Notes: generated by a model from the letters alone, not told the origin. A DNA stretch of 64,000 nucleotides from a virus (IMGVR_UViG_3300031772_000002:32001-96000), one strand, 5' to 3'; counted from the stretch's first letter, positions 12,309 to 28,781 are shown. Numbers and translations are program-made.

Positions 12309-13238
12309 ATGTCATCAGTATTAAAAAAATTTCCATTGGCTCTTATAAGTGATGCATTTATAAGTTATATACAATGGATGTTTGGAAATGAAGAGAAGGT
12401 TCCTGAATACTATAGATGGATTGCAGATGATAGGTTAAGTAAAATTCGTATATCATCACCATTTGTTATAGATAATCAAAAACCAATGAGTGCCCCATTT
12501 ATAGTAGTTGAAAGAAGTGGTTTTACATTTCAACATAATATTATAAATGATGTTAAGTCTGGATCAGAAAATACATTTGAACAAATAGAACAGGTGGTAA
12601 TATTAGATGGATTTATTAATATTATATGTGGTTCGCGGGTTGGGTCTGAGGCTTCATCATTAGCTAATTTTTTAGCTATTAATTTACAATCTGATAGACA
12701 TGGAATTATGGATGCTTTAAAATTTTTACGTAATATGAATTGTGTTGATATTGGACCTGAAACACCTGTAGTTATTAATACTGAAGTAAGAAGATATGAA
12801 GTTGTATTGCGTATTTCTGCATCAATACAACTTGGGTGGTTAAACGTATTAAGAGAGCCTGAATTATGGAATTCAGTATCTATATTTGCAGTAAATAAAG
12901 AATCTACAACATTTTCTGAAAATGGAGTGGTTGAAAAAGATAAAGATATATTGTATGATAATAGTAAAAGTTTTGGATTTGAAGAAGATGATGATCCAAG
13001 ACTAAATGAAAAAGAATTATCAAATGGATATTATTATATTAAATTTAATGAAAATCCACAGTTATATCCTATTGATAGTATAAAAGATAAAAATACATTA
13101 AAATTATTAACTCATAATGATTATAATGAACCTATACCATGGGTAGCTCCTGATAATGCTGATGATGTTAAATATGAATTATATTGGAATTGTATACATT
13201 TAACAGGCGAAATACCAAATAATAACCAAGGAGAATAG
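12309..13238 (+). CDS. Putative tail terminator/completion protein
   Basis: Directly upstream of sheath; PFIVVERSG motif. Confidence 0.5.
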   Translation: MSSVLKKFPLALISDAFISYIQWMFGNEEKVPEYYRWIADDRLSKIRISSPFVIDNQKPMSAPFIVVERSGFTFQHNIINDVKSGSENTFEQIEQVVILDGFINIICGSRVGSEASSLANFLAINLQSDRHGIMDALKFLRNMNCVDIGPETPVVINTEVRRYEVVLRISASIQLGWLNVLREPELWNSVSIFAVNKESTTFSENGVVEKDKDILYDNSKSFGFEEDDDPRLNEKELSNGYYYIKFNENPQLYPIDSIKDKNTLKLLTHNDYNEPIPWVAPDNADDVKYELYWNCIHLTGEIPNNNQGE

Positions 13239-13241
13239 AAA

Positions 13242-15803
13242 ATGGCTACAACATATCAAGGACCAAATGTTTCAGTAACTCAACAGTTTGTTACAAGTCC
13301 AGGCGCAATTGCTGTGGAAGATATTCCATCTGCAATAGTTGCTACTGCATTTGATGTGTATCTTAATGAATTGATTGGATCATCATATGGAATTAAAGAT
13401 AATGTTTTAGAATGGGGTGTTGAAAAAGTAGTATATAATAAAGATGTTATTAATAAAAGAGCATACGATTTTTATCCTGTAAAAGTAAAAGGATCTTCAC
13501 CATTTGGAAATATTGATCTTGATATAGATAGTGATAATATATCAGAAGATGGTATTTCTATTGGATATGATGATAATTATACAGTTCCAAACACAGAACA
13601 AGTAGAAGGGGAATGCGAAGGTATAATTCCTTATTATAGAAAAGAAGGGGTTTCAGGTGAAGTTAAAATTCTTGCTTCTGATCTTAAAACGATTTTAATT
13701 ACTGACGGAGCTGTAGTTACTTCAAAAATTAAAACAGGTCAAAATGTTTTTATTAATATTAGTGATGCTTGGACATTTGTAGGAACGGTTGCTAATATTA
13801 GTACCGACGAAACAAAAATAAATCTTCAAAAAGCTTATTCTGCTGCTATACTTAATGGTGAAGGAATTGTTGTTGGAGCTCATAATGTTTCGACTATTGA
13901 TATTCCTAATACATTGTATGATGTAAATGCGAAATTTGTAACTAATAAAGTTAAAATTGGAGATGTATTATATTTATCATCATTAGCAATTTCAGATTCA
14001 ATAGATACTCCAATTCAAGTAAGCGTAACTTCAGTATTAAATGAAAATACATTAAAATTTAATACTATTCCGCTTGATACAGGCAGGGTTGATTATTCAT
14101 TTACTCAATACAAGGCATTTGAACAAACTCCATTTTCTACTCTTTATTTAAGTTATTATACCATTAAAAGATATCTTGGATTTTCTCAAAACTATGGATT
14201 AAAACTCGTTGGCGACGCTTCAATTGTAGAGAAAATAAATGATTATTCATTTAGTATTACAGACACTGGCGGGTTAGCTCCAGTGCTTTCTGCAGGAGAT
14301 TTATTTTTAGTAACTACTGCCATTATAGATGATGGTGTTGACGAACGTACTATTGACAATATAAGATTATATCGTATTAATACTATTGTTAAAAGTGGTG
14401 AAGTTTATACTATCACTACAAATTCAGTTATATATAAATCGGTAGTGTCTCCTAATGATACTAAGTTTATTACCGGAGATTTTTTAACTGCATGGCATCC
14501 TAAAATTGAAAGTGATATTCTTTCTGATTTTCGTGCAGTAAGAACTGAAGAAATTGGAGTTGTAAAACGTATCGCAAGTTTGAAAGATATTACCGATGCG
14601 TGGTCAAATGATGGTAGTATTAATTTACATAATGAGTTGGCTTTTATGGCTTCTGCAGCTTTTTCTCAATCAGGACAACAAGTTTTATATGGTGTTCATG
14701 TTGATGCTACTGAAAATAATCTATCTGAACAATATGCAGAAGCTCTTGAGGAGCTTAAACTTTATGATGTATATAGCCATACATTTGGAACTACCGATGT
14801 GGGTGTTAATGCTCTTGCGGGGCCATATTGTGATGAACAGTCTGAACCTTACGAAGGTCATGAACGTATTGCCACTGTAGTTTATGATGAAAATGATATT
14901 TATTTAATGGGATCAGATGATGGCAGTATTGATGAATCTACAGGAGTTATAACTATAAATGGATCCTTTGATCCTGTTTCTGCTGGAATAACAGTTAATG
15001 ACATTGTTGAAATATATGATGTTGATGGTGAACTTGTTACAACTGTTAATGTTATTGCAACTCCAGATTCAGAAACTCCTTTTGAAATACAAACAGATTA
15101 TAGTGGAGATTCAATAACTACTCCAAGTTTTAAATTCATGAGTGGACGAAAAGATAATCAAGCAATTAAAATAGCCGCTATAGATTATGGGAATCGTAGA
15201 GTTAAAGTGTTGTGGCCAGGATGGTTTTATGGATATTATAATAGTATCCAGTATCTTCTTCCTCCATATTATATCTCTGCAGCAATTGTTGGATTGGATT
15301 CAGGAGTAGTAGTTTCTCAATCATTTACAAATATGAATTTTAGCATACCAGGAATAGCTAATATTTCATTAAAAACAAATCATTATTTTAAGAAATCTCA
15401 ACTTGATGAAATTGGAGGCAGTGGAGTTGATGTTATGATTCAGGATGTATCTCCAAGCCAATCAATTAAGTCAAGACATGATTTAACTTCAAATATGGAT
15501 GCTGTAGAATATAGAGAGCATTCTATTACTAAACAGGCGGATGTTGCTGCGAAAACATTACGATCAGCTATAAATCCATATGTTGGAAAGTATAATATTA
15601 CTAACGATTTATTGAAATTTATAGCGTCTGTATGTGGAATAGTATCAACAACACTTACCAGAAAAGGAATTTTGCAATCACTTTATGTAAAATCAATTGC
15701 TCGTGATGAAGTTATTGCTGATAAAATTAATATTGTATGCGAAGCAACTGTATTTGTTGCGGGTAATTATTATGACATTACATTGATTATTAAATCACGT
15801 TAA
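13242..15803 (+). CDS. Contractile tail sheath protein
   Basis: 853 aa; N-terminal YQGPNVSV; C-terminal sheath-like YYISAAIVG..RHDLT..EHSITKQAD..YVGKYNI. Confidence 0.8.
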   Translation: MATTYQGPNVSVTQQFVTSPGAIAVEDIPSAIVATAFDVYLNELIGSSYGIKDNVLEWGVEKVVYNKDVINKRAYDFYPVKVKGSSPFGNIDLDIDSDNISEDGISIGYDDNYTVPNTEQVEGECEGIIPYYRKEGVSGEVKILASDLKTILITDGAVVTSKIKTGQNVFINISDAWTFVGTVANISTDETKINLQKAYSAAILNGEGIVVGAHNVSTIDIPNTLYDVNAKFVTNKVKIGDVLYLSSLAISDSIDTPIQVSVTSVLNENTLKFNTIPLDTGRVDYSFTQYKAFEQTPFSTLYLSYYTIKRYLGFSQNYGLKLVGDASIVEKINDYSFSITDTGGLAPVLSAGDLFLVTTAIIDDGVDERTIDNIRLYRINTIVKSGEVYTITTNSVIYKSVVSPNDTKFITGDFLTAWHPKIESDILSDFRAVRTEEIGVVKRIASLKDITDAWSNDGSINLHNELAFMASAAFSQSGQQVLYGVHVDATENNLSEQYAEALEELKLYDVYSHTFGTTDVGVNALAGPYCDEQSEPYEGHERIATVVYDENDIYLMGSDDGSIDESTGVITINGSFDPVSAGITVNDIVEIYDVDGELVTTVNVIATPDSETPFEIQTDYSGDSITTPSFKFMSGRKDNQAIKIAAIDYGNRRVKVLWPGWFYGYYNSIQYLLPPYYISAAIVGLDSGVVVSQSFTNMNFSIPGIANISLKTNHYFKKSQLDEIGGSGVDVMIQDVSPSQSIKSRHDLTSNMDAVEYREHSITKQADVAAKTLRSAINPYVGKYNITNDLLKFIASVCGIVSTTLTRKGILQSLYVKSIARDEVIADKINIVCEATVFVAGNYYDITLIIKSR

Positions 15804-17209: not shown

Positions 17210-18127
17210 TCAATTGACTTTGTAAGGTTTTGATATTATTTCAGATAATTCTGGACCTTTCCAATATGGTAAAATCCATTGCTTTCTTCTTAAAGTTAAT
17301 TTTTCTCCATAAGCTTGATTTGTCCAATGGCCCCTGACTATAAATCTTTTATCTATAGTTCTATGCTTAGAACTATTTAAAGATTTATAATCTTTTGGAG
17401 TTGTTAAATATATATAAGTATTAGTAATTTTTTTATTTTTACTATTACTTTTAACATTTGTTTTTCGTGTACATATTTTTTGCACACAACCATTGTCAAC
17501 CCTTTCATTAATATACATTACTGTATTATAAAATATATTAACAACTTTTTGAGTTTCATTTTTTGTTATTCTTATGTCCAAATCTTTTGCTATTGGATGT
17601 ATTTGCTTTTCATACATTTCTTTAATAACATTATCTTTTTTTAAATTTAACCAAATATAATCCAGACCAGTATCTATATCTAATATTTTTACACCAGGGA
17701 CTATGGCCGATATTGAAATATCCCATTCAATATTATGAACATAGCCATCAATACTAATTAGTTTAGAATTTTTAGTTGCAGTTTCTTTATCAATATAAAG
17801 AATATTATATACATTTGTTTTTCTTCCATCACTAAAAAATACGTCAAACATTGGGTTTTCGCTTTCTATCATAAAGCACCCAAAAGGATATTGAAAATCA
17901 TTTGGTGTATAATTAAGATTAATATCTGTATTATTAAAAGCTTCAACAAGATCTGATGATAATTTAAAAGTTTTAGATCCTGTCATTTGCCATATTTTTA
18001 TTTTATTTAGTAATGATAAATACATGAATATTAATTCTGCTGTTTTAAAATTTTTACTATATTGATTATATTGATTTAATGAATTGGCAAAATTTTCTAA
18101 TATTTCCATTCTCTTAATTATATTCAT
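17210..18127 (-). CDS. Phage hypothetical protein with C-terminal VRGHW..Q.YG..WI.PYWKG motif
   Basis: 305-aa ORF with RBS; C-terminal motif recurrent in phage proteins. Confidence 0.7.
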   Translation of the reverse strand: MNIIKRMEILENFANSLNQYNQYSKNFKTAELIFMYLSLLNKIKIWQMTGSKTFKLSSDLVEAFNNTDINLNYTPNDFQYPFGCFMIESENPMFDVFFSDGRKTNVYNILYIDKETATKNSKLISIDGYVHNIEWDISISAIVPGVKILDIDTGLDYIWLNLKKDNVIKEMYEKQIHPIAKDLDIRITKNETQKVVNIFYNTVMYINERVDNGCVQKICTRKTNVKSNSKNKKITNTYIYLTTPKDYKSLNSSKHRTIDKRFIVRGHWTNQAYGEKLTLRRKQWILPYWKGPELSEIISKPYKVN

Positions 18128-19819: not shown

Positions 19820-20089
19820 TTATCCTTTGATATATGATTTTGATTTTAGTGAATCTATTTTATTACAATTAAGATCATGAATAATGATATCAATTATAAA
19901 ATTTTTATCCATTTGATTTTTTTCTGCCAAATCAATAAAAGTATTCAGATCATAAAATGCTTTTATTCCTTTATATTCTTGGAAATACATCATAGATAAA
20001 ATAATGTCTATGGTATTAATTTCTGTACATTTTGTATATTCTAATATTTTTTTTTCTATAGTAAGAATATCATCATATCCGGGTTTCAT
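19820..20089 (-). CDS. Hypothetical protein
   Basis: AAGGA RBS. Confidence 0.6.
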   Translation of the reverse strand: MKPGYDDILTIEKKILEYTKCTEINTIDIILSMMYFQEYKGIKAFYDLNTFIDLAEKNQMDKNFIIDIIIHDLNCNKIDSLKSKSYIKG

Positions 20090-20546
20090 TTTTTTTCCTT
20101 ATATTAAATAAATTTTTTCATTACCAACTGAAATTTCGTACAACGGTTCGCTAAATGGCTGATAGTTGCCGCATTCGCTCAACCAAATCTTTAACATTCG
20201 CTATATCACAATCCTTAATATGAATATCAGAAAGTTCGTTTGCAAAAGCGTCAATTTCATTCTTTAGCTGCTGTGCGCTGTTGGCAATTTCTACAACACG
20301 TTTCAGAGCTTGCCATGCGTCCTTTAATTTTACACCATAGTTCAATTGCGGAAATTCAGATTCTATGATTGATAGTGCCTCTTTACCAGAAAGCATGGTA
20401 AACTCCTTTCAAAAAATTTAAGAGCAAAATTGAAGTTAATTTAGCAAATGTATACAGTCGGAACAGCATTGCATACTTTTTGAGTTTCATTTTTTTTCCT
20501 TATATTAAATAAATTTTTTCGTTACCAACTGAAATTTCGTACAACG
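20083..20546. repeat. 63-bp direct repeat (20083-20145 and 20484-20546, 1 mismatch)
   Basis: On the minus strand each copy starts at CGTTGTAC and runs through RBS and ATGAAAC. Confidence 0.9.
20151..20396 (-). CDS. Cassette ORF, hypothetical
   Basis: AAGGAG RBS; reads into the attC-like site at SAQQLK. Confidence 0.65.
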   Translation of the reverse strand: MLSGKEALSIIESEFPQLNYGVKLKDAWQALKRVVEIANSAQQLKNEIDAFANELSDIHIKDCDIANVKDLVERMRQLSAI

Positions 20547-20595
20547 TTCCACAAACGGGCGAAGTTCTCGCCTATAATTCTAACTCCATAGTCAA

Positions 20596-20796
20596 CTACG
20601 GGTATTTTGTCATTTGTGTGTTATCAGCTGCAAACTGGATTACCGTATCTTCCAACATGGCCTGAAACGAAGTTACGATAGTTTCAAGTTCGTTGGTTTC
20701 AAGATTATTTACATAAGAAGAAGTCATTCCATTAAGTCGTAAAACTCGTTTCATGCGAACACGCCAGCGAGCTTCATCCGAAGAATATTTAGTCAT
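20596..20796 (-). CDS. Cassette ORF, hypothetical
   Basis: AGGAAG RBS, ATG 20796; ends in site (ADNTQMTK). Confidence 0.6.
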   Translation of the reverse strand: MTKYSSDEARWRVRMKRVLRLNGMTSSYVNNLETNELETIVTSFQAMLEDTVIQFAADNTQMTKYP

Positions 20797-20872
20797 AAAA
20801 CTTCCTTTCTTGGCATCGCCTATAAACAAAAAATGCAGTTTATTGACACTAATTTAGCAAACGTATATAGTG

Positions 20873-21085
20873 CTACTTTCCTAACTGTACACAATTTCCA
20901 TTTAAACACTGATTTTTTGATCCAAGTGCATAACCGCATTCGGAACAGCATTGCATACTTTTCTGGTTATATGATACAGAATGGGCGCCATATTTAGAGT
21001 ACTGTTGCGTAAATATCAAATAACCGCACCATACTCCAAAACCAAATATTGGAATTAATAACAGAAATAATATAATGAATATCAT
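20873..21085 (-). CDS. Cassette ORF: TM helix plus Cys-rich C-terminus
   Basis: GGAGG RBS; YNQKSMQCCSECG..C..C. Confidence 0.6.
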   Translation of the reverse strand: MIFIILFLLLIPIFGFGVWCGYLIFTQQYSKYGAHSVSYNQKSMQCCSECGYALGSKNQCLNGNCVQLGK

Positions 21086-21112
21086 ATGCAGCCTCCAAAG
21101 TTTTACATAATA

Positions 21113-21141
21113 AAAAAAAGAATGAATAAAAATTCATTCTT
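21113..21141 (-). terminator. Intrinsic terminator
   Basis: AAGAATGAAT/ATTCATTCTT stem plus T tract on minus strand. Confidence 0.5.
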
Positions 21142-21149
21142 ATAGGAAG

Positions 21150-21332
21150 CTATTGAATAAGACATGAGCTTCCGTTTTTTTTTAAAAACCAAAACGACAA
21201 TTTTCCCCCTAGAAAATTAAAATCCTTTGAAGAAAAATACTTTTTATTTATGGGGTTTATCTTCCCATAAATTAAAAAGGCTTTTTTAATTAACTTATTT
21301 TTTTTTTTATTAAAAATTATTGATTTTAACAT
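21150..21332 (-). CDS. Small basic hypothetical protein
   Basis: AAGGA RBS; behind promoter 21379-21407. Confidence 0.5.
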   Translation of the reverse strand: MLKSIIFNKKKNKLIKKAFLIYGKINPINKKYFSSKDFNFLGGKLSFWFLKKNGSSCLIQ

Positions 21333-21378
21333 AAAAAAATCCTTTTAATTGTTAATACTTAATTGTATTAACATAATA

Positions 21379-21407
21379 TTTATACCATAATTTTCATAAT
21401 AATAACG
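21379..21407 (-). promoter_or_regulatory. Conserved early-type promoter
   Basis: CGTTAT-N17-TATAAA with TGG extension. Confidence 0.6.
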
Positions 21408-21429
21408 TATATAATTGTTTCTATTTATT

Positions 21430-21792
21430 TTATAAATTTGATTTTGATTTTATATCCACAATCGTTGGTTCCATATTAGGTAACGGTTTCAGTTTAGGAA
21501 CTATTTTATTTTCATCAACTGTTACAATAGGAATGCCACTTTTTGGTTCAGACCATTTGCCTATTTTAAGTAACTCATTTTTCCAAACAGCTGAAACTTC
21601 GTCAGAGCAATGAGCAACCGCATCAGCCCATGTAACACCACGTCCATATGTTGATTGAAACCATATCTGATATGGTAATGATTGTGCATTATGTGGTTGT
21701 GTGGAATTGTGTAAAGTTGCACATACTTGGCAGGTCCCTGCTTTCGATGGTAACATAAACATTGGCATAAAGTTCCAATTCCTTTCTTTCAA
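21430..21792 (-). CDS. Phage hypothetical protein (CxxC..H..PHN..TWADA.AHC)
   Basis: Metal-binding-like motif pattern; start uncertain. Confidence 0.65.
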   Translation of the reverse strand: MKERNWNFMPMFMLPSKAGTCQVCATLHNSTQPHNAQSLPYQIWFQSTYGRGVTWADAVAHCSDEVSAVWKNELLKIGKWSEPKSGIPIVTVDENKIVPKLKPLPNMEPTIVDIKSKSNL

Positions 21793-21844
21793 AATATTAA
21801 AATTTTGTTTAAACTATTTGTGAAATTCTTGATATATATGATAC

Positions 21845-22078
21845 TTAACAACCATCTTTGTCATCTTTGTAACCATACAAAGACCACATTCCCATACACA
21901 TAACTCCTTTTTTAAGTTTATCGCATATAAATGTAGATCCAACGACAGGATCAATAACAATTCTTGAAGATTTAATAATTTTGTTAATTTGTAACGTATA
22001 GACATATAACTCGGCGGTACTGTTATCCTCTAATACGGTTACGTCCAAAATACAACCGTCTTCGTGATATTCAGCCAC
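21845..22078 (-). CDS. Hypothetical protein
   Basis: GTG start with AAGGA RBS. Confidence 0.5.
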   Translation of the reverse strand: MAEYHEDGCILDVTVLEDNSTAELYVYTLQINKIIKSSRIVIDPVVGSTFICDKLKKGVMCMGMWSLYGYKDDKDGC

Positions 22079-22181
22079 AAATTATTCCTTTCTTGTGAAG
22101 GTCTATCAAATTAGAATCTTATATAATAACTCCATAAAAAAAATTTATTTCTCCAAGCGTTTGCCAAATGGATGCCGTTGC

Positions 22182-22379
22182 TCACCGAAGCGGGATACGG
22201 CAATCAGGACAATTTTTCATCCACGGATACTCTATTGACAAATCCTGATGGTTCTTCGAGCAATGGCATTCCTTTGGCTGTTGCTGGCTGTGCTGCGCTG
22301 ACTCCTTAGTGTCGTGCGCGGCAGTATCTTCGATGATGCGTCTCAATATTTTTTTACACTGATCTTTCGTAACAAGCAT
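22182..22379 (-). CDS. Cassette ORF with C-terminal CxC..CxxC
   Basis: GAGGA RBS; QQQPKECHC..CPDC lies in site 22152-22286. Confidence 0.6.
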   Translation of the reverse strand: MLVTKDQCKKILRRIIEDTAAHDTKESAQHSQQQPKECHCSKNHQDLSIEYPWMKNCPDCRIPLR

Positions 22380-22436
22380 ACATCCTCATTTTCTTGCCAC
22401 GCCTATAAATGGTTCGGCGTAGCATTGACAGCAACT

Positions 22437-22820
22437 TTATAAATGGTGCTGTTGTAGACAAGTAATAGCTGCTTTGATATGATTAACTGCGTTATCTACT
22501 TGTAAACAGCGCAAATAAGCCAATGCATCGTTTAGGTCTGCAATGGCATCCATTTGTGTTTGGTTGGTGGGTTTAAATTTTTCTTCCACTAGTAATTCCA
22601 ACAATCTCTTTTGTCCAGGAGTTACATTTATTTTATTATCTATTGCCCATCTACTAATAATTTCATATATTTTAATATGTAATTGTTGTAAGATAGATTG
22701 ACAATTTCCATCGAGACTGCGTTGAGTCTCGATGTCATACCGATATCCACACTCATCACACAATTCCCACATATCATTCCATAAATGATCTATCTCTTTT
22801 TGACAATTTCTGCATTTCAT
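22437..22820 (-). CDS. Cassette ORF, N-terminal zinc ribbon
   Basis: ATGA overlap at 22817-22820; CRNC..CDECG; PTNQTQMDAI at site arm. Confidence 0.6.
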   Translation of the reverse strand: MKCRNCQKEIDHLWNDMWELCDECGYRYDIETQRSLDGNCQSILQQLHIKIYEIISRWAIDNKINVTPGQKRLLELLVEEKFKPTNQTQMDAIADLNDALAYLRCLQVDNAVNHIKAAITCLQQHHL

Positions 22821-23278
22821 AATAAATTTCCAATCTTTTTTTTGGAACGAAACCAAGGTATTTTTTTATCTTGTGGATTGTCAGATGAGGAACTACCAGT
22901 TATAATTTTCGGATGTTTGCGATATACCTTATAACCAAGACTATTACATTTTGATACAGACAAACCTATCAAATTTACAACTGCGTCAACACCAAATTCT
23001 TTCGATACAACTATATCTCCACTAATGCATTTTCCTTTCTTAACAAGTTTCATTTCTTTTCTCAATCTCAAATCGAACCTCCTATAAAATTTATTTTTAC
23101 CGTTCGTTTTTTCTTCTACGCCACACCTTGCGTATTCTATTTTTATTAATTTAATCACACCAGAAAAAACTTCATCGTTACATTCATTTTCTACAAATGC
23201 AACTATTTCTTTTTTTGATTTACCTTTTAGTAACGTTTCTTTGTCTGTGTCAAATTCAAATGTAATCCATAATTTCAT
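22817..23278 (-). CDS. Hypothetical protein
   Basis: ATG 23278 after GGAAAAG. Confidence 0.55.
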   Translation of the reverse strand: MKLWITFEFDTDKETLLKGKSKKEIVAFVENECNDEVFSGVIKLIKIEYARCGVEEKTNGKNKFYRRFDLRLRKEMKLVKKGKCISGDIVVSKEFGVDAVVNLIGLSVSKCNSLGYKVYRKHPKIITGSSSSDNPQDKKIPWFRSKKKIGNLL

Positions 23279-23356
23279 ATTTTCTTTTCCAGCACGGATG
23301 ATGTTTATTAGAATAAAGAAGGCTCCCACACAACGTTTGACAAATGTATGCCGAGC

Positions 23357-23572
23357 CTACCCGTAAACCTCAGAATGCGACTTACCGCAACGAATACACG
23401 AACCGCTATTAAGATCGAACTGGTGCTGACATGGTATACTTTGTTTGTTGGTGGATATAAATTTTTCCACCTCAGCTTTCAGTTTTCCGTACTTCGCTAC
23501 GACATCGGCGTGTACGGATTCTGGTAACTCCAACGCAAGGCATCTAACTACCTTATCAAATTCGGCAAACAT
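23357..23572 (-). CDS. Cassette ORF with C-terminal C-x-H..CxxC
   Basis: GGAGG RBS; STNKQSIPC at site arm. Confidence 0.65.
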   Translation of the reverse strand: MFAEFDKVVRCLALELPESVHADVVAKYGKLKAEVEKFISTNKQSIPCQHQFDLNSGSCIRCGKSHSEVYG

Positions 23573-23625
23573 ATAACCTCCAGAGAAAACGGTTTTTCGC
23601 ACAACGTTTGACAAATACACGCTGT

Positions 23626-23817
23626 TTAGTCACGATGATTAGACATACAATCGACACAATAATGATACTCTGCTATTTCATCACAATCGTCGCACTTAAT
23701 AGATGGCGTACTTTGTTTGCTTAAGATGTAATTCCACGCTTCTAATGCAACGCCACGACCGTAACTTTGATTTTTGCCATACTTATCGTTAAACCACTGC
23801 TCGAAATTTTCTGCCAT
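23626..23817 (-). CDS. Cassette ORF with C-terminal CxxC..CxxC
   Basis: FEQWF..AW N-module; SKQSTP at site arm. Confidence 0.65.
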   Translation of the reverse strand: MAENFEQWFNDKYGKNQSYGRGVALEAWNYILSKQSTPSIKCDDCDEIAEYHYCVDCMSNHRD

Positions 23818-23847
23818 ATATACAACCTTTCTATATAGTTCCTTAAT

Positions 23848-24108
23848 TTATTTTTTTTTGTTTGTATTAAAGAATTTTATTTTCTCTTCTTTCTTCTCCC
23901 ACACTTTACAATTTCTATAAATACCTGAATTGTCAGAATATCTTATTATTTTTCGTTTTTTGATAATGATATAATCTGTTACACACGCAGGTAAAGATAT
24001 TAATTTAGGCAAAGGAAATTTACACTCTCCATTACATCTCGAATGTTCACCTATTGAAAAAGGAGTCCAATCCGGTTCGTATTTGCACGTTAAACATATT
24101 TTATACAT
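23848..24108 (-). CDS. Hypothetical Cys-rich protein
   Basis: CLTCKY..GEC..C..W. Confidence 0.6.
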   Translation of the reverse strand: MYKICLTCKYEPDWTPFSIGEHSRCNGECKFPLPKLISLPACVTDYIIIKKRKIIRYSDNSGIYRNCKVWEKKEEKIKFFNTNKKK

Positions 24109-24121
24109 TTTGATATCCTAT

Positions 24122-24478
24122 TTAAATTTTAATAATGTTATTTACTAAAATTTTTTTTAAAAATTTATTAATTATATCTTGATTTACTTTTTCATATTTA
24201 AAGAGATCATATAAATTAGTAGATTCACTGTTTGCAGTTGTTCTTAACTTTATTCCTTCTTTTCCTTTTATCCAATATCTACAGAAATATCCTGAATATG
24301 ATTTTGAAGTTATAAAGCCATATTCAATATACGAATCTTCTATTATATTAAATTCATCTATTGCATGGCCAGGAACATATGCAATTTGATATCCTGTTTC
24401 AATTTTTGAAAGTTGCTCTTGACTTAAACTACTTAATTTTTGCATTTGCATAACATTCATAAAAACTCCAATTTTCAT
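24122..24478 (-). CDS. Hypothetical protein
   Basis: YVPGHA..EYGFIT..FCRYW..LRTTANSE. Confidence 0.65.
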   Translation of the reverse strand: MKIGVFMNVMQMQKLSSLSQEQLSKIETGYQIAYVPGHAIDEFNIIEDSYIEYGFITSKSYSGYFCRYWIKGKEGIKLRTTANSESTNLYDLFKYEKVNQDIINKFLKKILVNNIIKI

Positions 24479-24647
24479 CCGTTCATTATAATTTAAAAAG
24501 CATAATAATTTTGTACAATGTGTGATAAATGTACTGTCGTTTTAATTTAATATCTCTTACTTTCCAATAATTTTGAATTCCAAAAAATACCTTAGTGTAA
24601 TCCGCATTGCATAACGCCGGTGTTGTGCGCTGATTTTCGCGCTTTCC

Positions 24648-24905
24648 TTAGTGTACTCCCGGCGCTCTTTCTGTTTCATCCTCCATGAAATCAAACTGAC
24701 CCATTGCTACCTTTGCCCGTTTGTACGCATCGAAACATCCGCCATAAATTCCATCTTCTTCCGCACCCCATGATTCGATACCACGGAGTAGTCCGCTTAT
24801 AATTTCCATTAATTCCGTGACCGGCATATATGCCTCGCATTTCCGATGATGCGATAACAACGGCAATCGTCCATCGCTCGCCCAATTTTTGCATTCGCAT
24901 TCCAT
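24648..24905 (-). CDS. Cassette ORF, hypothetical
   Basis: GC-rich; flanked by complementary cassette ends. Confidence 0.65.
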   Translation of the reverse strand: MECECKNWASDGRLPLLSHHRKCEAYMPVTELMEIISGLLRGIESWGAEEDGIYGGCFDAYKRAKVAMGQFDFMEDETERAPGVH

Positions 24906-24988
24906 GTTTTTTCTCTTTCTTGCGCCGGGCTATAATAGTTCTTCAGCGCGAAAATTTGCGTACAACGTATAACAAATGTACGCCGTGT

Positions 24989-25195
24989 CTACCGCTTAGG
25001 AAAACAAGTCCACGCACGAGTATAAATTGTGTCATGAATGTAAACAGTATCTGGACACGAACATGGCGTACTTTTTTTGTTGTAAGATGTGTTTTTAATT
25101 ACCTTAATGTCAGAGGCAATATCACGGATGTTTATTATCGCAGTGATACTTCCAATAAGCAAAAAGATAAATAACAAAACCGAACCTGCTCTCAT
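24989..25195 (-). CDS. Cassette ORF with N-terminal signal/TM helix
   Basis: YNKKSTPC at arm of site 24960-25085. Confidence 0.6.
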   Translation of the reverse strand: MRAGSVLLFIFLLIGSITAIINIRDIASDIKVIKNTSYNKKSTPCSCPDTVYIHDTIYTRAWTCFPKR

Positions 25196-25210
25196 ATTGC
25201 CGCCTATAAA

Positions 25211-25414
25211 TTAAAGATTTAAAACATTACTTTCTGCGGGCGCACTCTTTCTTATTGCTAAATATTCCATTAAACACCGTCTGATTGTTAACGAATATAC
25301 TGCCAACGATGGTAGTTTTATCAAATCATTTTTCATAAAATTTGTTATTGCACCAATTGATTCCTGTATATCTTCAATGGTGGTAATTTCACCAGATTTG
25401 TCTATTATATTCAT
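25211..25414 (-). CDS. Hypothetical protein
   Basis: AAGGA RBS. Confidence 0.6.
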   Translation of the reverse strand: MNIIDKSGEITTIEDIQESIGAITNFMKNDLIKLPSLAVYSLTIRRCLMEYLAIRKSAPAESNVLNL

Positions 25415-25468
25415 TTTCCTTTCCTTTCTTATGTCCGCTTATAAATAAGTTTTGCGAGTGCAAATGGT

Positions 25469-25798
25469 TTACAACGGTTTATAAACGTCTGATAGTTCGC
25501 GCAGTTCGTTGACGGCATTATCTACCGCCATAGGATCAGCGGTACGATACGAAATTTCAAGTCCATCTGCAATAGCGCGAATTTTGGCTTGCAGTTGTTG
25601 TACGTCTGTAAGCTTTTTTACATTAGCGTACCGTTCGCACTCTTCATTAAGAGCACGAGTGTTAGGCTCATCTTCTCTATAAGGACAATTTTTGTCTTCA
25701 CCGTCACAGTCGTCTCTATCAATAGCACATACTGTTTTTGATTTACTTTTTACTTCTACAATTTTAACTAAAATAGTCTCTATTTTTTTGCAAGTCAT
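25469..25798 (-). CDS. Cassette ORF, hypothetical
   Basis: VQQLQAKI at site arm; stop codon inside the distal GTTGTAA box. Confidence 0.6.
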   Translation of the reverse strand: MTCKKIETILVKIVEVKSKSKTVCAIDRDDCDGEDKNCPYREDEPNTRALNEECERYANVKKLTDVQQLQAKIRAIADGLEISYRTADPMAVDNAVNELRELSDVYKPL

Positions 25799-25904: not shown

Positions 25905-26513
25905 TTAAATATTTCTCCACTTATTATCAATATATTGGAACAACTGCCTATCATTATAAGTAATGATAGGGGCTCCTTTTACTATTCTAACTAACTTATA
26001 AGTTTTATCGATTGGCATCAAATACATACCTCCGACAATACTTGCCTTAGCAGTTTCACAATTCTCAAAGAAATTAATAATTTCTTTACTCATATACCCA
26101 GATCCTTTAGTGATTTCAATCATAACAGAAAATCCAGATACTTCCCATTTATCAATTTCTTTTTTTTGTTTATTATATTTCATTATATACCCCTCTTCTT
26201 GGGAGCCGTCTCTTTCACTAAATCTTATAGTTGACGGTCTTGCAATACCCCCTTCCAATTCTTCATCAATTCGTGCATCTTGAATTTCATTGTTATTAAA
26301 TCCTGGTTTACCAGAATTTTTTAATATAGGAGTTTTAACAAATATAGGATTATTAGACTCTTTACTATCATCCTTTTCATTCTCTGTATAGGCAGGATAT
26401 TCAATAGCTTCATTAGTATTAATTTCTAAATTATTATTATTTTCTTCATTAACCAAATTTAACATTGGGTTGTTTTCTTCTAAAACACTATCTTCATTTA
26501 AATTTTCATTCAT
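25905..26513 (-). CDS. Hypothetical protein, acidic N-terminus
   Basis: AGGAG RBS. Confidence 0.7.
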   Translation of the reverse strand: MNENLNEDSVLEENNPMLNLVNEENNNNLEINTNEAIEYPAYTENEKDDSKESNNPIFVKTPILKNSGKPGFNNNEIQDARIDEELEGGIARPSTIRFSERDGSQEEGYIMKYNKQKKEIDKWEVSGFSVMIEITKGSGYMSKEIINFFENCETAKASIVGGMYLMPIDKTYKLVRIVKGAPIITYNDRQLFQYIDNKWRNI

Positions 26514-26871
26514 GAGATTTCAACTCCTTATAAATTGTTTCAAAAATATCGTCTATTACATCCTTTATTATTTCTTTTTTAATAATTATAAAAATAGGAT
26601 AATCAAGATTTAAAACCATAGTTGGATCTATCAATCCAATATCACATTCATTTCCTAAATATTTATTAAGAAAAAATATCATATTTTGTATTGTAATATC
26701 GTTAACAGCTATATGATATTCTCCTTTTAAAACATTATTTATATAAACTTTTCTAACTGTAAATTGACTATAATAAGAATATCCATAAGTAATATTTTCA
26801 GGTATTATATTTAAAGTAATGTTTTTTAATTTATCATTTAGTTGAAGATTATCATTTTGATCGCTTTCCAT
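26506..26871 (-). CDS. Hypothetical protein
   Basis: GGAGG RBS. Confidence 0.65.
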   Translation of the reverse strand: MESDQNDNLQLNDKLKNITLNIIPENITYGYSYYSQFTVRKVYINNVLKGEYHIAVNDITIQNMIFFLNKYLGNECDIGLIDPTMVLNLDYPIFIIIKKEIIKDVIDDIFETIYKELKSHE

Positions 26872-27590: not shown

Positions 27591-27629
27591 TTGACATACT
27601 ACCCGCCCTGAAGGACGAGGTTTTACGGG
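27591..27629 (-). mobile_element. IS200/IS605-type end remnant (minimal PATE-like element)
   Basis: CCCGTAAAACCTCGTCCTTCAGGGCGGGTAGTATGTCAA: subterminal hairpin plus TCAA end. Confidence 0.6.
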
Positions 27630-28781
27630 CTATTGGATAATTTGATTATCAATTTTAGAATCTTTTATATATTTACAATTAACATCAAAATATTTAATTA
27701 TATGTTGTATAATTTTTTTAGAAGCGTCTCCATATCCATACATATTATTTATATAATTTAATTTATTATTATTAATATCATTTAGAGTTAAATATATTGC
27801 ATGAATTATTTGTTCAATATGATTGGGATTAACAATTTTATTCCAACCTAATTCAACAGTTTCAGTCCATTCTGTTTCTTCACGTAAAGTAACACAGGGT
27901 ACTTTATGAAAATAAGCTTCCTTTTGTATTCCCCCAGAATCAGTAATAATTAAATTTGCATTATTCTCAAGAGATATCATATCAAAAAATCCAACTGGTT
28001 CTATAATCAAAATATTTGACATAAGTGAGGTGTAATTAAAATGATAAATCATCTTGCTGGTACGAGGATGCATAGGTAAAATTATATTAATTTTTTTTGC
28101 AAGAGTATTTAAAATTGTAAATATATTAAATAATTTATCTTTATTGTCAACATTTTCAGCCCTATGTATTGTAGCAAGAATATAATTTTTACTTTTTATA
28201 TTTAGATCGGTTAATATTTTGCTTATTTTATTTGCTTTGTTAGTATATTTTAATGCTATATCATACATTACATCTCCAACATAAAAAACATTTTTATTAA
28301 TTTTTTCTTCTTCTAAATTATTAGAAGCTAAACTGGTAGGGGTAAAAAGTAATGTAGATAATTTATCAGTAATAATTCTATTTTTTTCTTCTAGCATTCT
28401 TATATTATAACTTCTTAAACCTGCTTCAATATGTGCTATTGGAATGTTTAATTGAGATGAGATTAAAGCACCAGCTAAAGTGGAATTAGTATCTCCATAT
28501 AATAATACTAAATCTGGTTTTTCTACACAAAGAATTTCTTCTATACCTATCATCATTTTTCCAATTTGATTTCCATATGATTTTTCAATAATATTAAGAT
28601 TATATTTTGGTTTAGGTATATTAAGTTCTTCAAAAAATAATTTAGACATATTTTCATTATAATGTTGACCAGTGTTTAATATTATTTCATTAAGTAAAGA
28701 TTCTTTTTTAATTTCTTCCGATATAATTGAAGCTTTTATAAACTGAGGTCTAGTTCCAATTATAGTAATAATTTTTTTCAT
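27630..28781 (-). CDS. wecB: UDP-N-acetylglucosamine 2-epimerase (non-hydrolysing)
   Basis: GTRPQFIK, NTGQHY, YGDTNSTLAG, HIEAGLRS, TIHRAEN, TDSGGIQKEA. Confidence 0.95.
   Translation of the reverse strand: MKKIITIIGTRPQFIKASIISEEIKKESLLNEIILNTGQHYNENMSKLFFEELNIPKPKYNLNIIEKSYGNQIGKMMIGIEEILCVEKPDLVLLYGDTNSTLAGALISSQLNIPIAHIEAGLRSYNIRMLEEKNRIITDKLSTLLFTPTSLASNNLEEEKINKNVFYVGDVMYDIALKYTNKANKISKILTDLNIKSKNYILATIHRAENVDNKDKLFNIFTILNTLAKKINIILPMHPRTSKMIYHFNYTSLMSNILIIEPVGFFDMISLENNANLIITDSGGIQKEAYFHKVPCVTLREETEWTETVELGWNKIVNPNHIEQIIHAIYLTLNDINNNKLNYINNMYGYGDASKKIIQHIIKYFDVNCKYIKDSKIDNQIIQ

Follow-up and report, generated by a model that had tools for sequence, protein, structure and literature searches.

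In bacterial integrons the attC sites carry their extrahelical bases on the R''-L'' arm, with strand exchange in R' (PMC2727003), and the integrase IntI is distinguished by an additional domain around patch III (PMC9668308, citing Messier and Roy 2001). CALINs, i.e. clusters of attC sites, with sites active with IntI1 are known in virulent phages (PMC9892861). For T4-type phages, gene shuffling at PeSL repeats has been documented together with mini-circles (PMC2839356). A description of a system of the kind presented below was not found in the searchable literature.

We analysed a window of 64,000 nucleotides, i.e. the whole stretch of DNA under study, which belongs to a complete phage genome of 164 kb. 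Its minus strand carries, between 20.1 and 25.8 kb, what we take with a probability of roughly 70% to be an orphan mobile-cassette array of a phage-resident integron-like gene-capture system. The array is 5.7 kb long and is organized as follows:

20137..25798, minus strand: cassette array, about 11 small ORFs of higher GC with 3' sites or site remnants, low-GC ORFs between them
25905..26871, minus strand: two anchor genes (121 aa and 202 aa) immediately upstream of the array
20064..20560, minus strand: cassette of ORF 20151-20396, with a 63-96-nt direct repeat on both sides (20064-20159 and 20465-20560) that starts at a GTTGTAC box

The arrangement of the repeat-flanked cassette is identical in a related contig (L118). 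GC contents of the cassette ORFs lie at 0.36-0.47 compared to 0.20-0.29 for the backbone; around the sites the values are 0.33-0.37 against 0.21-0.25 in the flanks, in agreement with the higher local GC noticed in the first-pass annotation. In a search of the whole 164-kb genome the box motifs are confined to 20.1-25.6 kb and all lie on the minus strand. Rfam, which itself holds no attC covariance model, gave no matches in the window.

To define the sites we applied a geometric descriptor to the phage genome, with shuffled genomes at equal threshold as control, and a covariance model (R1) derived from sites of other contigs only, the window sites being left out. Four sites of about 11 are intact and pass testing by one or the other means; some seven further ones are decayed remnants:

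24960..25085, minus strand: site e1 at the 3' end of ORF 24989-25195, full geometry
23328..23453, minus strand: site e3 at the 3' end of ORF 23357-23572, full geometry, descriptor score 11
22151..22286, minus strand: site e4b at the 3' end of ORF 22182-22379, 3' box GCTTGG
20539-20626, minus strand: site at the 3' end of ORF 20596-20796, 5' box decayed to GATAAC, R1 score 32.5 bits
23599..23725, minus strand: degenerate site e2 at the 3' end of ORF 23626-23817
22437..22570, minus strand: degenerate site at the 3' end of ORF 22437-22820, then the junction TAAAG|TTG
24506..24643, minus strand: hybrid decayed site after ORF 24648-24905, GCACAAC and ..TTGTAC boxes, arms unpaired
20840-20965, minus strand: remnant e6 at the 3' end of ORF 20873-21085
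20430-20485, minus strand: remnant e7, a collapsed copy without the loop
25469..25482, minus strand: bare 3' box AACCGTTGTAA, overlapping the stop codon of ORF 25469-25798
20141-20152, minus strand: bare GTTGT box

The descriptor recovers e1 and e3 as full sites, two in the phage genome compared to 0-1 per shuffled genome. R1 matches three window sites in the 164-kb genome and nothing else, namely e1 (37.6 bits, E 4e-8; descriptor score 14), e4b (27.4 bits, E 3.5e-5) and the site at 20539-20626, a member of a subfamily of ~85-nt sites known from other phages. The model does not detect e3 and gives no significant score for e6 and e7. The sites e1 and e3 are the two hairpins quoted in the first-pass annotation (25085-24960 and 23453-23328); both are present exactly as described, with ..ACAAC and GTTGT.. 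boxes, an unpaired spacer and one bulged base on the gene-distal arm. Its count of 8-10 hairpins was generous, as the sites beyond the intact four, the hybrid one being counted here as 24506-24630, are decayed or half sites. In e2 the 3' arm and the GTTGTGC box are preserved while the 5' box and the distal stem have decayed, and 16-17 nt of the 3' arm are shared with e3. The two copies of a 22-nt inverted repeat lie on either side of ORF 24648-24905 (24945-24966 and 24622-24643), and the bare box at 25469-25482 has no convincing 5' partner.

Comparison of the sites reveals a common geometry comprising an ACAAC/GTTGT helix, a small bulge, a 6-bp helix, a bulge of 1-3 nt and a variable stem-loop, with compensatory changes. 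In e1 this reads TACAAC, a 6-bp helix, an 11-bp helix, a 72-nt loop with the stop codon, a 1-nt bulge and GTTGTAC. Sites are 56-160 nt long and reside at the 3' end of the cassette, overlapping its last codons and stop codon. The terminal helix of 5-7 bp is formed by (Y)ACAAC with GTTGT(R), boxes that pair in e1, e3 and at least 15 sites of relatives; compared to the attC consensus RYYYAAC / GTTRRRY, core position 5 is mostly T, not R. Every intact site has the 1-3-nt bulge and the longer spacer on the L'-R' arm, beside GTTG. In at least nine sites the helix sequences differ and the spacing is constant. An alignment of ten sites has 79% of cells paired, compared to 30-35% in slid controls, and both sides have changed in 15 of 26 pairs; the covariation score is 0.39 versus 0.14 for shuffled alignments, a value attained in none of 500 shuffles, although these counts, like the strand bias given below, are not fully independent because sites within a subfamily are homologous. 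Folding energies vary, from -26.2 kcal/mol (z = -4.1) for the bottom-strand DNA of e4b to modest z-scores of about -2.5 and 0 for the long-loop sites e1 and e3. Thus, the support for the window sites comes from geometry, the covariance model and comparative breakpoints, not from folding energy.

The mobility of the cassettes is evident from 12 near-identical metagenomic contigs with flanks that are 96-99% identical. Single cassettes have been gained, lost or replaced among these relatives, with at least 13 breakpoints at the 3' box and the crossover mapped to G|TTG. The slot 3' of e1 is filled by four different cassette sets across the window and the 12 relatives, and in the relatives three different downstream cassettes are joined to e1 exactly after GTTG. 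Relatives with and without a restriction-alleviation (Lar) cassette also occur; the cassette has the same five nucleotides, CGTTG, at both flanks, and this pair excludes a crossover at the 5' box. The cassette at 23346-23600 is missing in seven contigs (L118-L122, L128 and L129) and present in L124 and L125; the junction lies inside the shared box, and e2 is the point of gain or loss. In L118 the e4b cassette is swapped for another ORF with both breakpoints at boxes, and the site at 20539-20626 has its breakpoint against the same contig at 20546. Downstream of the degenerate site at 22437-22570 we find three different cassettes (that of the window, that of L118 and that of L121). The cassette start at the ORF of the hybrid site (24648-24905 region) is preceded by a different cassette in L126, so that one cassette start occurs after two different upstream cassettes, and all turnover events fit a single crossover in G|TTG. 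A three-gene module that ends exactly at a site is 87% identical to a module of an unrelated phage with a GC content of 46%. The first-pass annotation had proposed an integron-like array of mobile cassettes with attC-like hairpins, and breaks at the GTT box between relatives with differing cassettes, named beforehand as the decisive check, are indeed what the comparison returned.

Such turnover might also arise by homologous or microhomology recombination or by template switching as in PeSL shuffling, the boxes being regulatory or replication repeats and no dedicated recombinase being involved. We consider this unlikely, yet it is the alternative that survives best. It agrees with the phage itself having no recombinase and with longer direct repeats of 16-17, 22 and 63 nt around some cassettes. 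Other breakpoints in the region, at 24593 (right-hand, hybrid site), 23993/23915, 21959/21804 and 19318, lie outside the boxes and look like ordinary indels. However, the common core at several junctions is merely 4-5 nt, and the bulge geometry is kept across unrelated helix sequences. The sigma-70 promoter and terminator of a PeSL are not found: the boxes are not promoters, start codons follow 10-28 nt after some of them, no T-run terminator lies 3' of the hairpins, and the loop consists of coding sequence and the stop codon. Repeat shuffling also leaves aside the tight linkage of these arrays to one recombinase clade and a conserved box in six lineages.

This linkage was found outside the phage under study. 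Its complete genome has no PF00589 (tyrosine recombinase) gene, which extends the earlier observation that the window contains no integrase, nor does it contain an attI-like box above chance level. Six other phage-like lineages (L140, L151, L152/153, L154/155, L156 and L157) encode a XerA-like recombinase of 273-312 aa, with 51-88% mutual identity, directly upstream of such arrays. All 25 R1 matches in these lineages lie downstream of the recombinase on the same strand; besides these there is one weak match on the other strand. After the recombinase stop codon come first a conserved box (..CATAACTTAG|TT) and next the variable cassettes; nucleotide homology between lineages stops at or within 9 nt after the GTT of this box, and exactly there for L151 and L152. 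In L151, homologues of both anchor genes (25905-26871) are found immediately upstream of the recombinase; apart from these two, no gene of the 15-kb L151 locus has a match in the window genome. Because of this match the window array looks like an orphan. The suggestion that the integrase is provided from elsewhere is in line with a dedicated recombinase heading the same kind of array in other phages, which may act on the window array in trans. The array-linked enzyme could instead be a lysogeny integrase with its attP by chance beside an accessory-gene region.

An origin of the array as a true attC cluster, taken up from a bacterial integron and acted on by the IntI of a host, is distinctly improbable. 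The AAC/GTT boxes, unpaired spacer, bulged base, variable loop and G|TT crossover would fit this origin, as would the favoured folding of the bottom strand and the CALINs of virulent phages mentioned above. However, bulges and the longer spacer share an arm with the crossover box, opposite to the attC definition. The array-linked recombinase aligns with VchIntIA in two pieces, with ~36 aa missing where the IntI-specific domain would lie. Its score on TIGR02249 is 149 bits (cut-off 265), and its best NCBIfam match is the XerA-type family NF040815 (202 bits, below the cut-off of 220); every catalytic motif can be aligned, and in sequence it is closest to XerA (4a8e, 5hxy). R1 gives no match on phage TJE1, although TJE1 carries canonical attC sites. 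Among those found, homologous cassettes and sites are all in phage-like contigs, none next to an intI gene. The first-pass annotation had correctly pointed out a bulge polarity opposite to that of class 1 attC sites. This remark matters since sites and recombinase fail two defining features of true integrons, with extrahelical bases off the R''-L'' arm and no IntI-specific domain. Thus, the locus works like an integron, as had been claimed, but the identification with canonical attC sites and IntI does not hold.

Transposition of the cassettes as IS200/IS605-type (PATE-like) single-strand units by the phage's own Y1 HUH transposase is very improbable. The genome does encode a Y1 TnpA (E 3e-43) beside TnpB, and a TnpB insertion is located inside the array of one relative. 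Enzymes of this class recognise bulged hairpins and cut at a short motif nearby, and in the cassette sites, which are single-strand hairpins too, a base is extrahelical and the 5' box is the complement of the cut site. Yet the ends of the resident IS605 element (window 27600) are short GC-rich hairpins with 4-nt loops that do not resemble the cassette sites, there is one site per cassette instead of a left and right end pair, and the arrays of other lineages are linked to a tyrosine recombinase and not to a Y1 gene. The crossover lies within the helix, as with tyrosine recombinases. The action of a Xer-type enzyme on a hairpin that mimics a duplex has a precedent in XerCD, which uses the attP hairpin of CTX phage.

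The non-coding strand gives the more stable fold in 32 of 37 sites (p = 7e-6, again with homologous sites among them), with 99 G.T pairs versus 46, and coding-strand mismatches comprise 24 A.C versus 6 G.T. Better folding as DNA of the non-coding strand argues against a role in mRNA. Hairpins that act in mRNA processing, stability or translational coupling and merely mark gene boundaries are hardly credible, since their transcribed orientation around the stop codon and their covariation stand against a strand preference opposite to that predicted for RNA structure, A.C mismatches four times commoner than the G.U type, and exact G|TTG breakpoints that this role leaves unexplained.

In the integron-like system that we favour, a cassette would consist of a small higher-GC ORF, or a few ORFs, with a 3' recombination site. 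The site hairpin would form as single-stranded DNA of the non-coding strand, and the recombinase is expected to exchange strands at G|TTG of the 3' box, so that cassettes are inserted, excised or replaced as units. A complete platform would comprise the XerA-like tyrosine recombinase gene, the attI-like box and the array, all on the same strand. The phage studied here may have kept the array and the two anchor genes, its recombinase and attI-like box being absent; its cassettes may depend on a co-infecting relative or a resident element for movement in trans, or may be swapped by recombination with other arrays. As the genome has neither recombinase nor attI-like box, turnover in this lineage could be ordinary inter-array recombination. 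Several regional breakpoints off the boxes, the few intact sites, e3 being missed by R1 and the weak z-scores count against the explanation.

The cargo probably consists of early host-takeover or anti-defence genes. More generally, we think it fairly probable that phages carry their own class of integron analogue, with a XerA-like recombinase lacking the IntI domain, an attI-like G|TT box and bottom-strand hairpins with bulges mirroring those of attC. Through such systems unrelated phages (GC 29% to 46%) would trade small genes for counter-defence and host takeover, and the window would hold an orphan array that is still turning over in nature.

In PeSL-bearing phages (Arbiol et al. 2010, PMC2839356), too, repeats border small ORFs that are not essential, within an early region that is hyperplastic, and it is at the repeats that insertions, deletions or replacements distinguish close relatives. 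PeSLs combine a sigma-70 promoter with a terminator stem-loop and recombine by homology (PMC2839356), whereas the phage sites described here have neither element and show a 4-5-nt core, a covarying hairpin geometry and a linked recombinase. With IS200/IS605 ends and PATEs, elements of a type present in this phage, they share single-strand hairpins, an extrahelical base and a cut near the hairpin foot; those elements, however, depend on a HUH Y1 enzyme, have two ends that differ from each other and hairpins that are short and tight, and are cut in their single-stranded flanks. Kinship with XerA relates the array-linked recombinase to the archaeal XerA/dif system, yet XerA/dif and XerCD/CTX attP serve whole-replicon integration or dimer resolution at one site and form no multi-cassette arrays. 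The CALINs of virulent phages (Qi et al. 2023, PMC9892861) are likewise integrase-less clusters of cassette sites in lytic-type phages, with anti-restriction functions among the cargo. Those sites were called by attC models and recombined by IntI1, and the work reported no phage recombinase clade linked to them and no turnover at the population level (PMC9892861); TJE1, in which R1 has no match, is one of these phages. Bacterial integrons resemble the phage platform in combining a recombinase gene, an attI-like box and a one-directional array of small cassettes with structured 3' sites. The AAC/GTT terminal boxes, spacer, bulged bases, variable loop and G|TT crossover are also common to both, the more stable calculated fold of the phage sites is that of the non-coding (bottom) strand, which is the folded one in integrons, and arrays without a recombinase exist in integrons too. 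Unlike in integrons, the phage recombinase is XerA-like, has no IntI-specific domain and is transcribed in the direction of the array. The phage sites mirror attC in having the bulges on the crossover arm, their spacer forms a 3-nt bulge on one side instead of a two-sided bubble, they extend 20-40 codons into the ORF, and the platform resides in phage genomes.

The virus record, of which the window is bases 32001-96000, is complete (164,446 bp, with direct terminal repeats), and its array forms a minus-strand block of small ORFs with a GC content of 0.33-0.37 versus 0.21-0.25 in the flanks, in agreement with the higher local GC noted in the first-pass annotation. Scanning the whole genome, we find left-box, right-box and GTTGT motifs restricted to 20.1-25.6 kb and always on the minus strand. 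A search of the window for tRNA genes and Rfam matches returned neither.

Array and principal sites in the window
20137-25798, minus strand: array of small-gene cassettes, each with a hairpin site or a remnant at its 3' end
24960-25085, minus strand: hairpin site e1; 37.6 bits with R1, a covariance model of the cassette sites
23328-23453, minus strand: hairpin site e3
20539-20626: weaker hairpin; 32.5 bits with R1
22151-22286: weaker hairpin; 27.4 bits with R1

Sites e1 and e3, the two hairpins quoted in that annotation, are present letter for letter. Both are matched by a geometric descriptor (CAAC...GTTG, a spacer of 1-3 nt versus 4-6 nt, a 4-5-bp helix, one bulged base in the 3' arm and a further helix) that finds 0-1 sites in shuffled genomes, both strands summed; a very strict version caught e3 alone and the relaxed one was adopted. 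R1 was trained on ten sites, none from the window, and used with the default search, which recovers long-loop sites that are dropped when filters are off. Over the 164-kb genome it gives no matches beyond the three scored in the list. Apart from e1 and e3 the hairpins are weaker, two being backed by R1 and the rest being decayed sites or bare 3' boxes. Because most of these others are decayed or reduced to boxes, the earlier count of 8-10 hairpins holds when remnants are included and fails for intact sites.

On the coding strand, intact sites start with (Y)ACAAC, followed by 1-2 nt, a 5-6-bp helix and then a 4-14-bp helix. The loop of 16-120 nt contains the stop codon; behind it the second helix closes, a bulge of 1-3 nt follows, the first helix closes in turn, and (c)AAAC and GTTGT(R) come last. 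The spacing is constant among sites while the helix sequences are wholly different. In the alignment of the ten non-window sites, 79% of cells are paired (slid controls, ~30-35%), both-side changes occur in 15 of 26 pairs, and the covariation score is 0.39 versus 0.14 in shuffles, reached by 0/500. The reading frame of the 5' box varies from cassette to cassette, and its conservation is therefore not at the peptide level.

A separate motif, TTTATAGGC(G/C)G, recurs on the minus strand (20817-20825, 22400-22408, 25201-25209, 25436-25444 and 20569-20577); it sits just before cassette start codons and, in an 85-nt site subfamily, at the stop codon within the loop. It also occurs in the contigs L140, L133 and L121, is common to unrelated phages, and is a candidate ribosome-binding region, phage-polymerase promoter or part of the site. 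We considered TAnnTTTG in the 3' arm as a Bacteroidota -7 promoter and rejected it, since the phage's own conserved promoters are of the sigma-70 extended -10 type, TAnnTTTG is confined to the array and some start codons lie too near the box.

No close relative of the window phage was found among isolated phages, and neither blastn with the region nor tblastn with two cassette proteins matched an isolated phage. Single-protein locus searches (one flanking gene; the recombinase) returned no close viral relatives, and the 16-nt box pattern gave single chance matches only across IMG/VR. By exact-protein look-ups we reached twelve metagenomic contigs from this phage lineage with flanks 96-99% identical, in which gene order varies one cassette at a time. 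The slot after e1 holds a single 85-aa ORF in the window and three other ORFs in most relatives; in L118 and L119 a Lar restriction-alleviation ORF precedes those three, and in L126 there are six ORFs, the last being the window's own. The Lar cassette is bounded by CGTTG on each side, and CGTTG is single where Lar is absent. One cassette start, that of the window, lies behind e1 there but behind a different site in L126; a second is joined to ..CCG|TTG in one contig and to ..AGC|TTG in another contig. Taken together, the relatives' junctions place the predicted crossover within G|TTG and rule out exchange at the 5' ACAAC box. The 23346-23600 cassette, which the window has in common with L124 and L125, is missing from seven contigs (L118-L122, L128, L129), and its junction lies within the shared box. 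The comparison proposed in the first-pass annotation, cassette gain and loss at GTT boxes among relatives, gives at least 13 boundaries falling at boxes. Breakpoints at 24593, 23993/23915, 21959/21804 and 19318 are ordinary indels and not of the box type. A 410-aa TnpB (OrfB_IS605), absent from the window, is inserted within the array of L118 (L118:12214-13446) and L119 at window position 21385/21386. Outside the array, a 383-aa Epimerase_2 (wecB-like) gene (27598-28705) occurs in the window and in L120, L121, L124 and L125 but not in L118 or L126; this polymorphism is not at a cassette box.

The sites extend beyond this lineage. L126 and the unrelated phage contig L133 (GC 46%), which has two such sites, have in common a block of three genes at 87% identity, and the identity stops exactly at the site. 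The viral contig L139, found with a pattern from the L126/L133 site subfamily, carries three sites in 1 kb, and L140, a 9.3-kb contig of a metagenome-assembled genome, carries at least eight on one strand. The complete window genome lacks any PF00589 gene, in line with the absence of an integrase recorded earlier for the window. In L140 the first cassette is immediately preceded by a codirectional gene for a 288-aa tyrosine recombinase. It is nearest to XerA (NF040815, 202 bits; PDB 4a8e, 5hxy), and its alignment with the Vibrio integron integrase falls into two segments, lacking ~36 residues at the extra domain that defines IntI (PMC9668308). The clade of this recombinase counts about 45 proteins at 50% identity or more. 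Homologues 51-88% identical occur in five further phage-like contigs, which encode RecT, a terminase-like protein, portal, holin and ligase. R1 has 25 matches in the six recombinase lineages, all downstream of the recombinase and on its strand, versus one weak match on the opposite strand. In all six, a conserved box ending ..AACTTAGTT stands right after the recombinase stop codon (overlapping it in L156), and the sequences diverge beyond it; nucleotide homology of L140 with L151 and L152 ends exactly after its GTT. On gene order, recombinase, conserved box and cassettes have the layout of an integrase, a putative attI site and a cassette array. L156 additionally encodes an Acb2/Tad1-like gene (1698-2063) upstream of the recombinase, and its cassette region holds an N6/N4 DNA methyltransferase (12739-13578).

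Shuffling of the cassettes by PeSL-type homologous recombination (PMC2839356) fits in part: it agrees with the hyperplastic setting and with a few longer repeats around cassettes, but is at odds with cores of 4-5 nt, with a bulge geometry that is conserved and with the link to a recombinase. The recombinase could also be a lysogeny integrase with its attP adjoining an accessory region, a reading against which the divergence directly after GTT in six lineages speaks.

With respect to the integrase-like layout, the window array looks orphaned. In the L151 locus (15 kb, 23 genes) 2/23 genes match the window genome, both directly upstream of the L151 recombinase, and in the window the array follows immediately downstream of their homologues (25905-26871). 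A recombinase at the junction between anchor gene and array is absent in all ten related contigs covering it, and attI-like boxes in the window do not exceed chance. A 10-of-12 match to the attI-like box at 25989-26000 (minus strand), ~90 nt short of the stop codon of the 202-aa anchor gene in which it lies, may mean nothing, as such matches occur in the window at chance level.

Each A.C mismatch on one strand corresponds to a G.T wobble on its complement. Non-Watson-Crick cells on the coding strand comprise 24 A.C versus six G.T, counts not fully independent because sites of one subfamily are related. With DNA energy parameters, 32/37 sites, again partly related and not fully independent, fold more stably on the non-coding strand (mean gap -2.2 kcal/mol, binomial p 7e-6), which has 99 G.T pairs versus 46 on the coding strand. 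The non-coding strand folds into a nearly continuous hairpin with 3-nt and 1-nt bulges, both on its 5' arm. Strand bias and fold together argue for single-stranded DNA rather than mRNA as the likely substrate, and the bias contradicts a role of the hairpins as RNA.

Mobilisation of the IS200/IS605 type is contradicted by ends unlike the sites and by the single site per cassette. The genome carries IS605 (Y1 TnpA and TnpB) and IS607 (serine TnpA) far from the array; their Y1 transposase and serine recombinase were set aside as the cassette enzyme on account of the dissimilar ends and missing array linkage. Outside the window, a complete IS605-type element with divergent Y1 tnpA (137 aa) and tnpB (403 aa) lies at G000:C1:144308-147670 of the virus record, its ends being short GC-rich hairpins of the same type as an orphan end at window ~27600, and a serine-recombinase gene (PF00239) lies at G000:C1:12176-12541.

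Cassette ORFs encode 63-202 aa at a GC content of 0.36-0.52 (backbone 0.20-0.29), and many end in CxxC...CxxC tails encoded within the site loop. Pfam and PHROGs gave no matches for the window cassette proteins, and the only family match among relatives' cassettes is Lar restriction alleviation. Counter-defence genes are plausible candidates for the cargo. Just beyond the array, a 305-aa ORF (17210-18127, minus strand), whose copy in relatives has a precomputed AcrVA2-like Pfam match (PF26125), suggests an anti-CRISPR-type gene.

Our literature search yielded integrons, phage CALINs, archaeal integrons and PeSLs, and no description of a Xer-like recombinase heading hairpin-site arrays in phages; its coverage was incomplete, so this is no proof of novelty. 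If our reading is correct, the platform resides in phages, has a recombinase clade to itself and shows a site geometry in mirror image. The hyperplastic early regions long noted in large phages would then have a mechanism, and the hopping of small anti-defence genes between unrelated phages an explanation. Gene capture at hairpin sites would have evolved or branched off outside the IntI family. Engineering would gain a further recombination system that is structure-specific, and comparison of two natural solutions would make the role of extrahelical bases in strand and polarity testable.

Integrons, the textbook case of structure-specific gene capture, have been treated as cellular devices, with phages known to carry only occasional fragments of them. 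Tetrasphaera phage TJE1 has attC sites recombined by IntI1 (PMC9892861); R1 gave no matches in this phage, our single negative control. The system described here shares with integrons the AAC/GTT boxes, a crossover at G|TT, a folded site closing each cassette at its 3' end, a predicted folding preference for the non-coding strand, arrays that run in one direction and the occurrence of some arrays with no integrase. It differs in that the linked recombinase has no IntI domain. Moreover, attC by definition has its extrahelical bases on the R''-L'' arm and exchanges in R' (PMC2727003), whereas here the bulges lie on the exchanged arm, a polarity opposite to class 1 attC, as the first-pass annotation had remarked.
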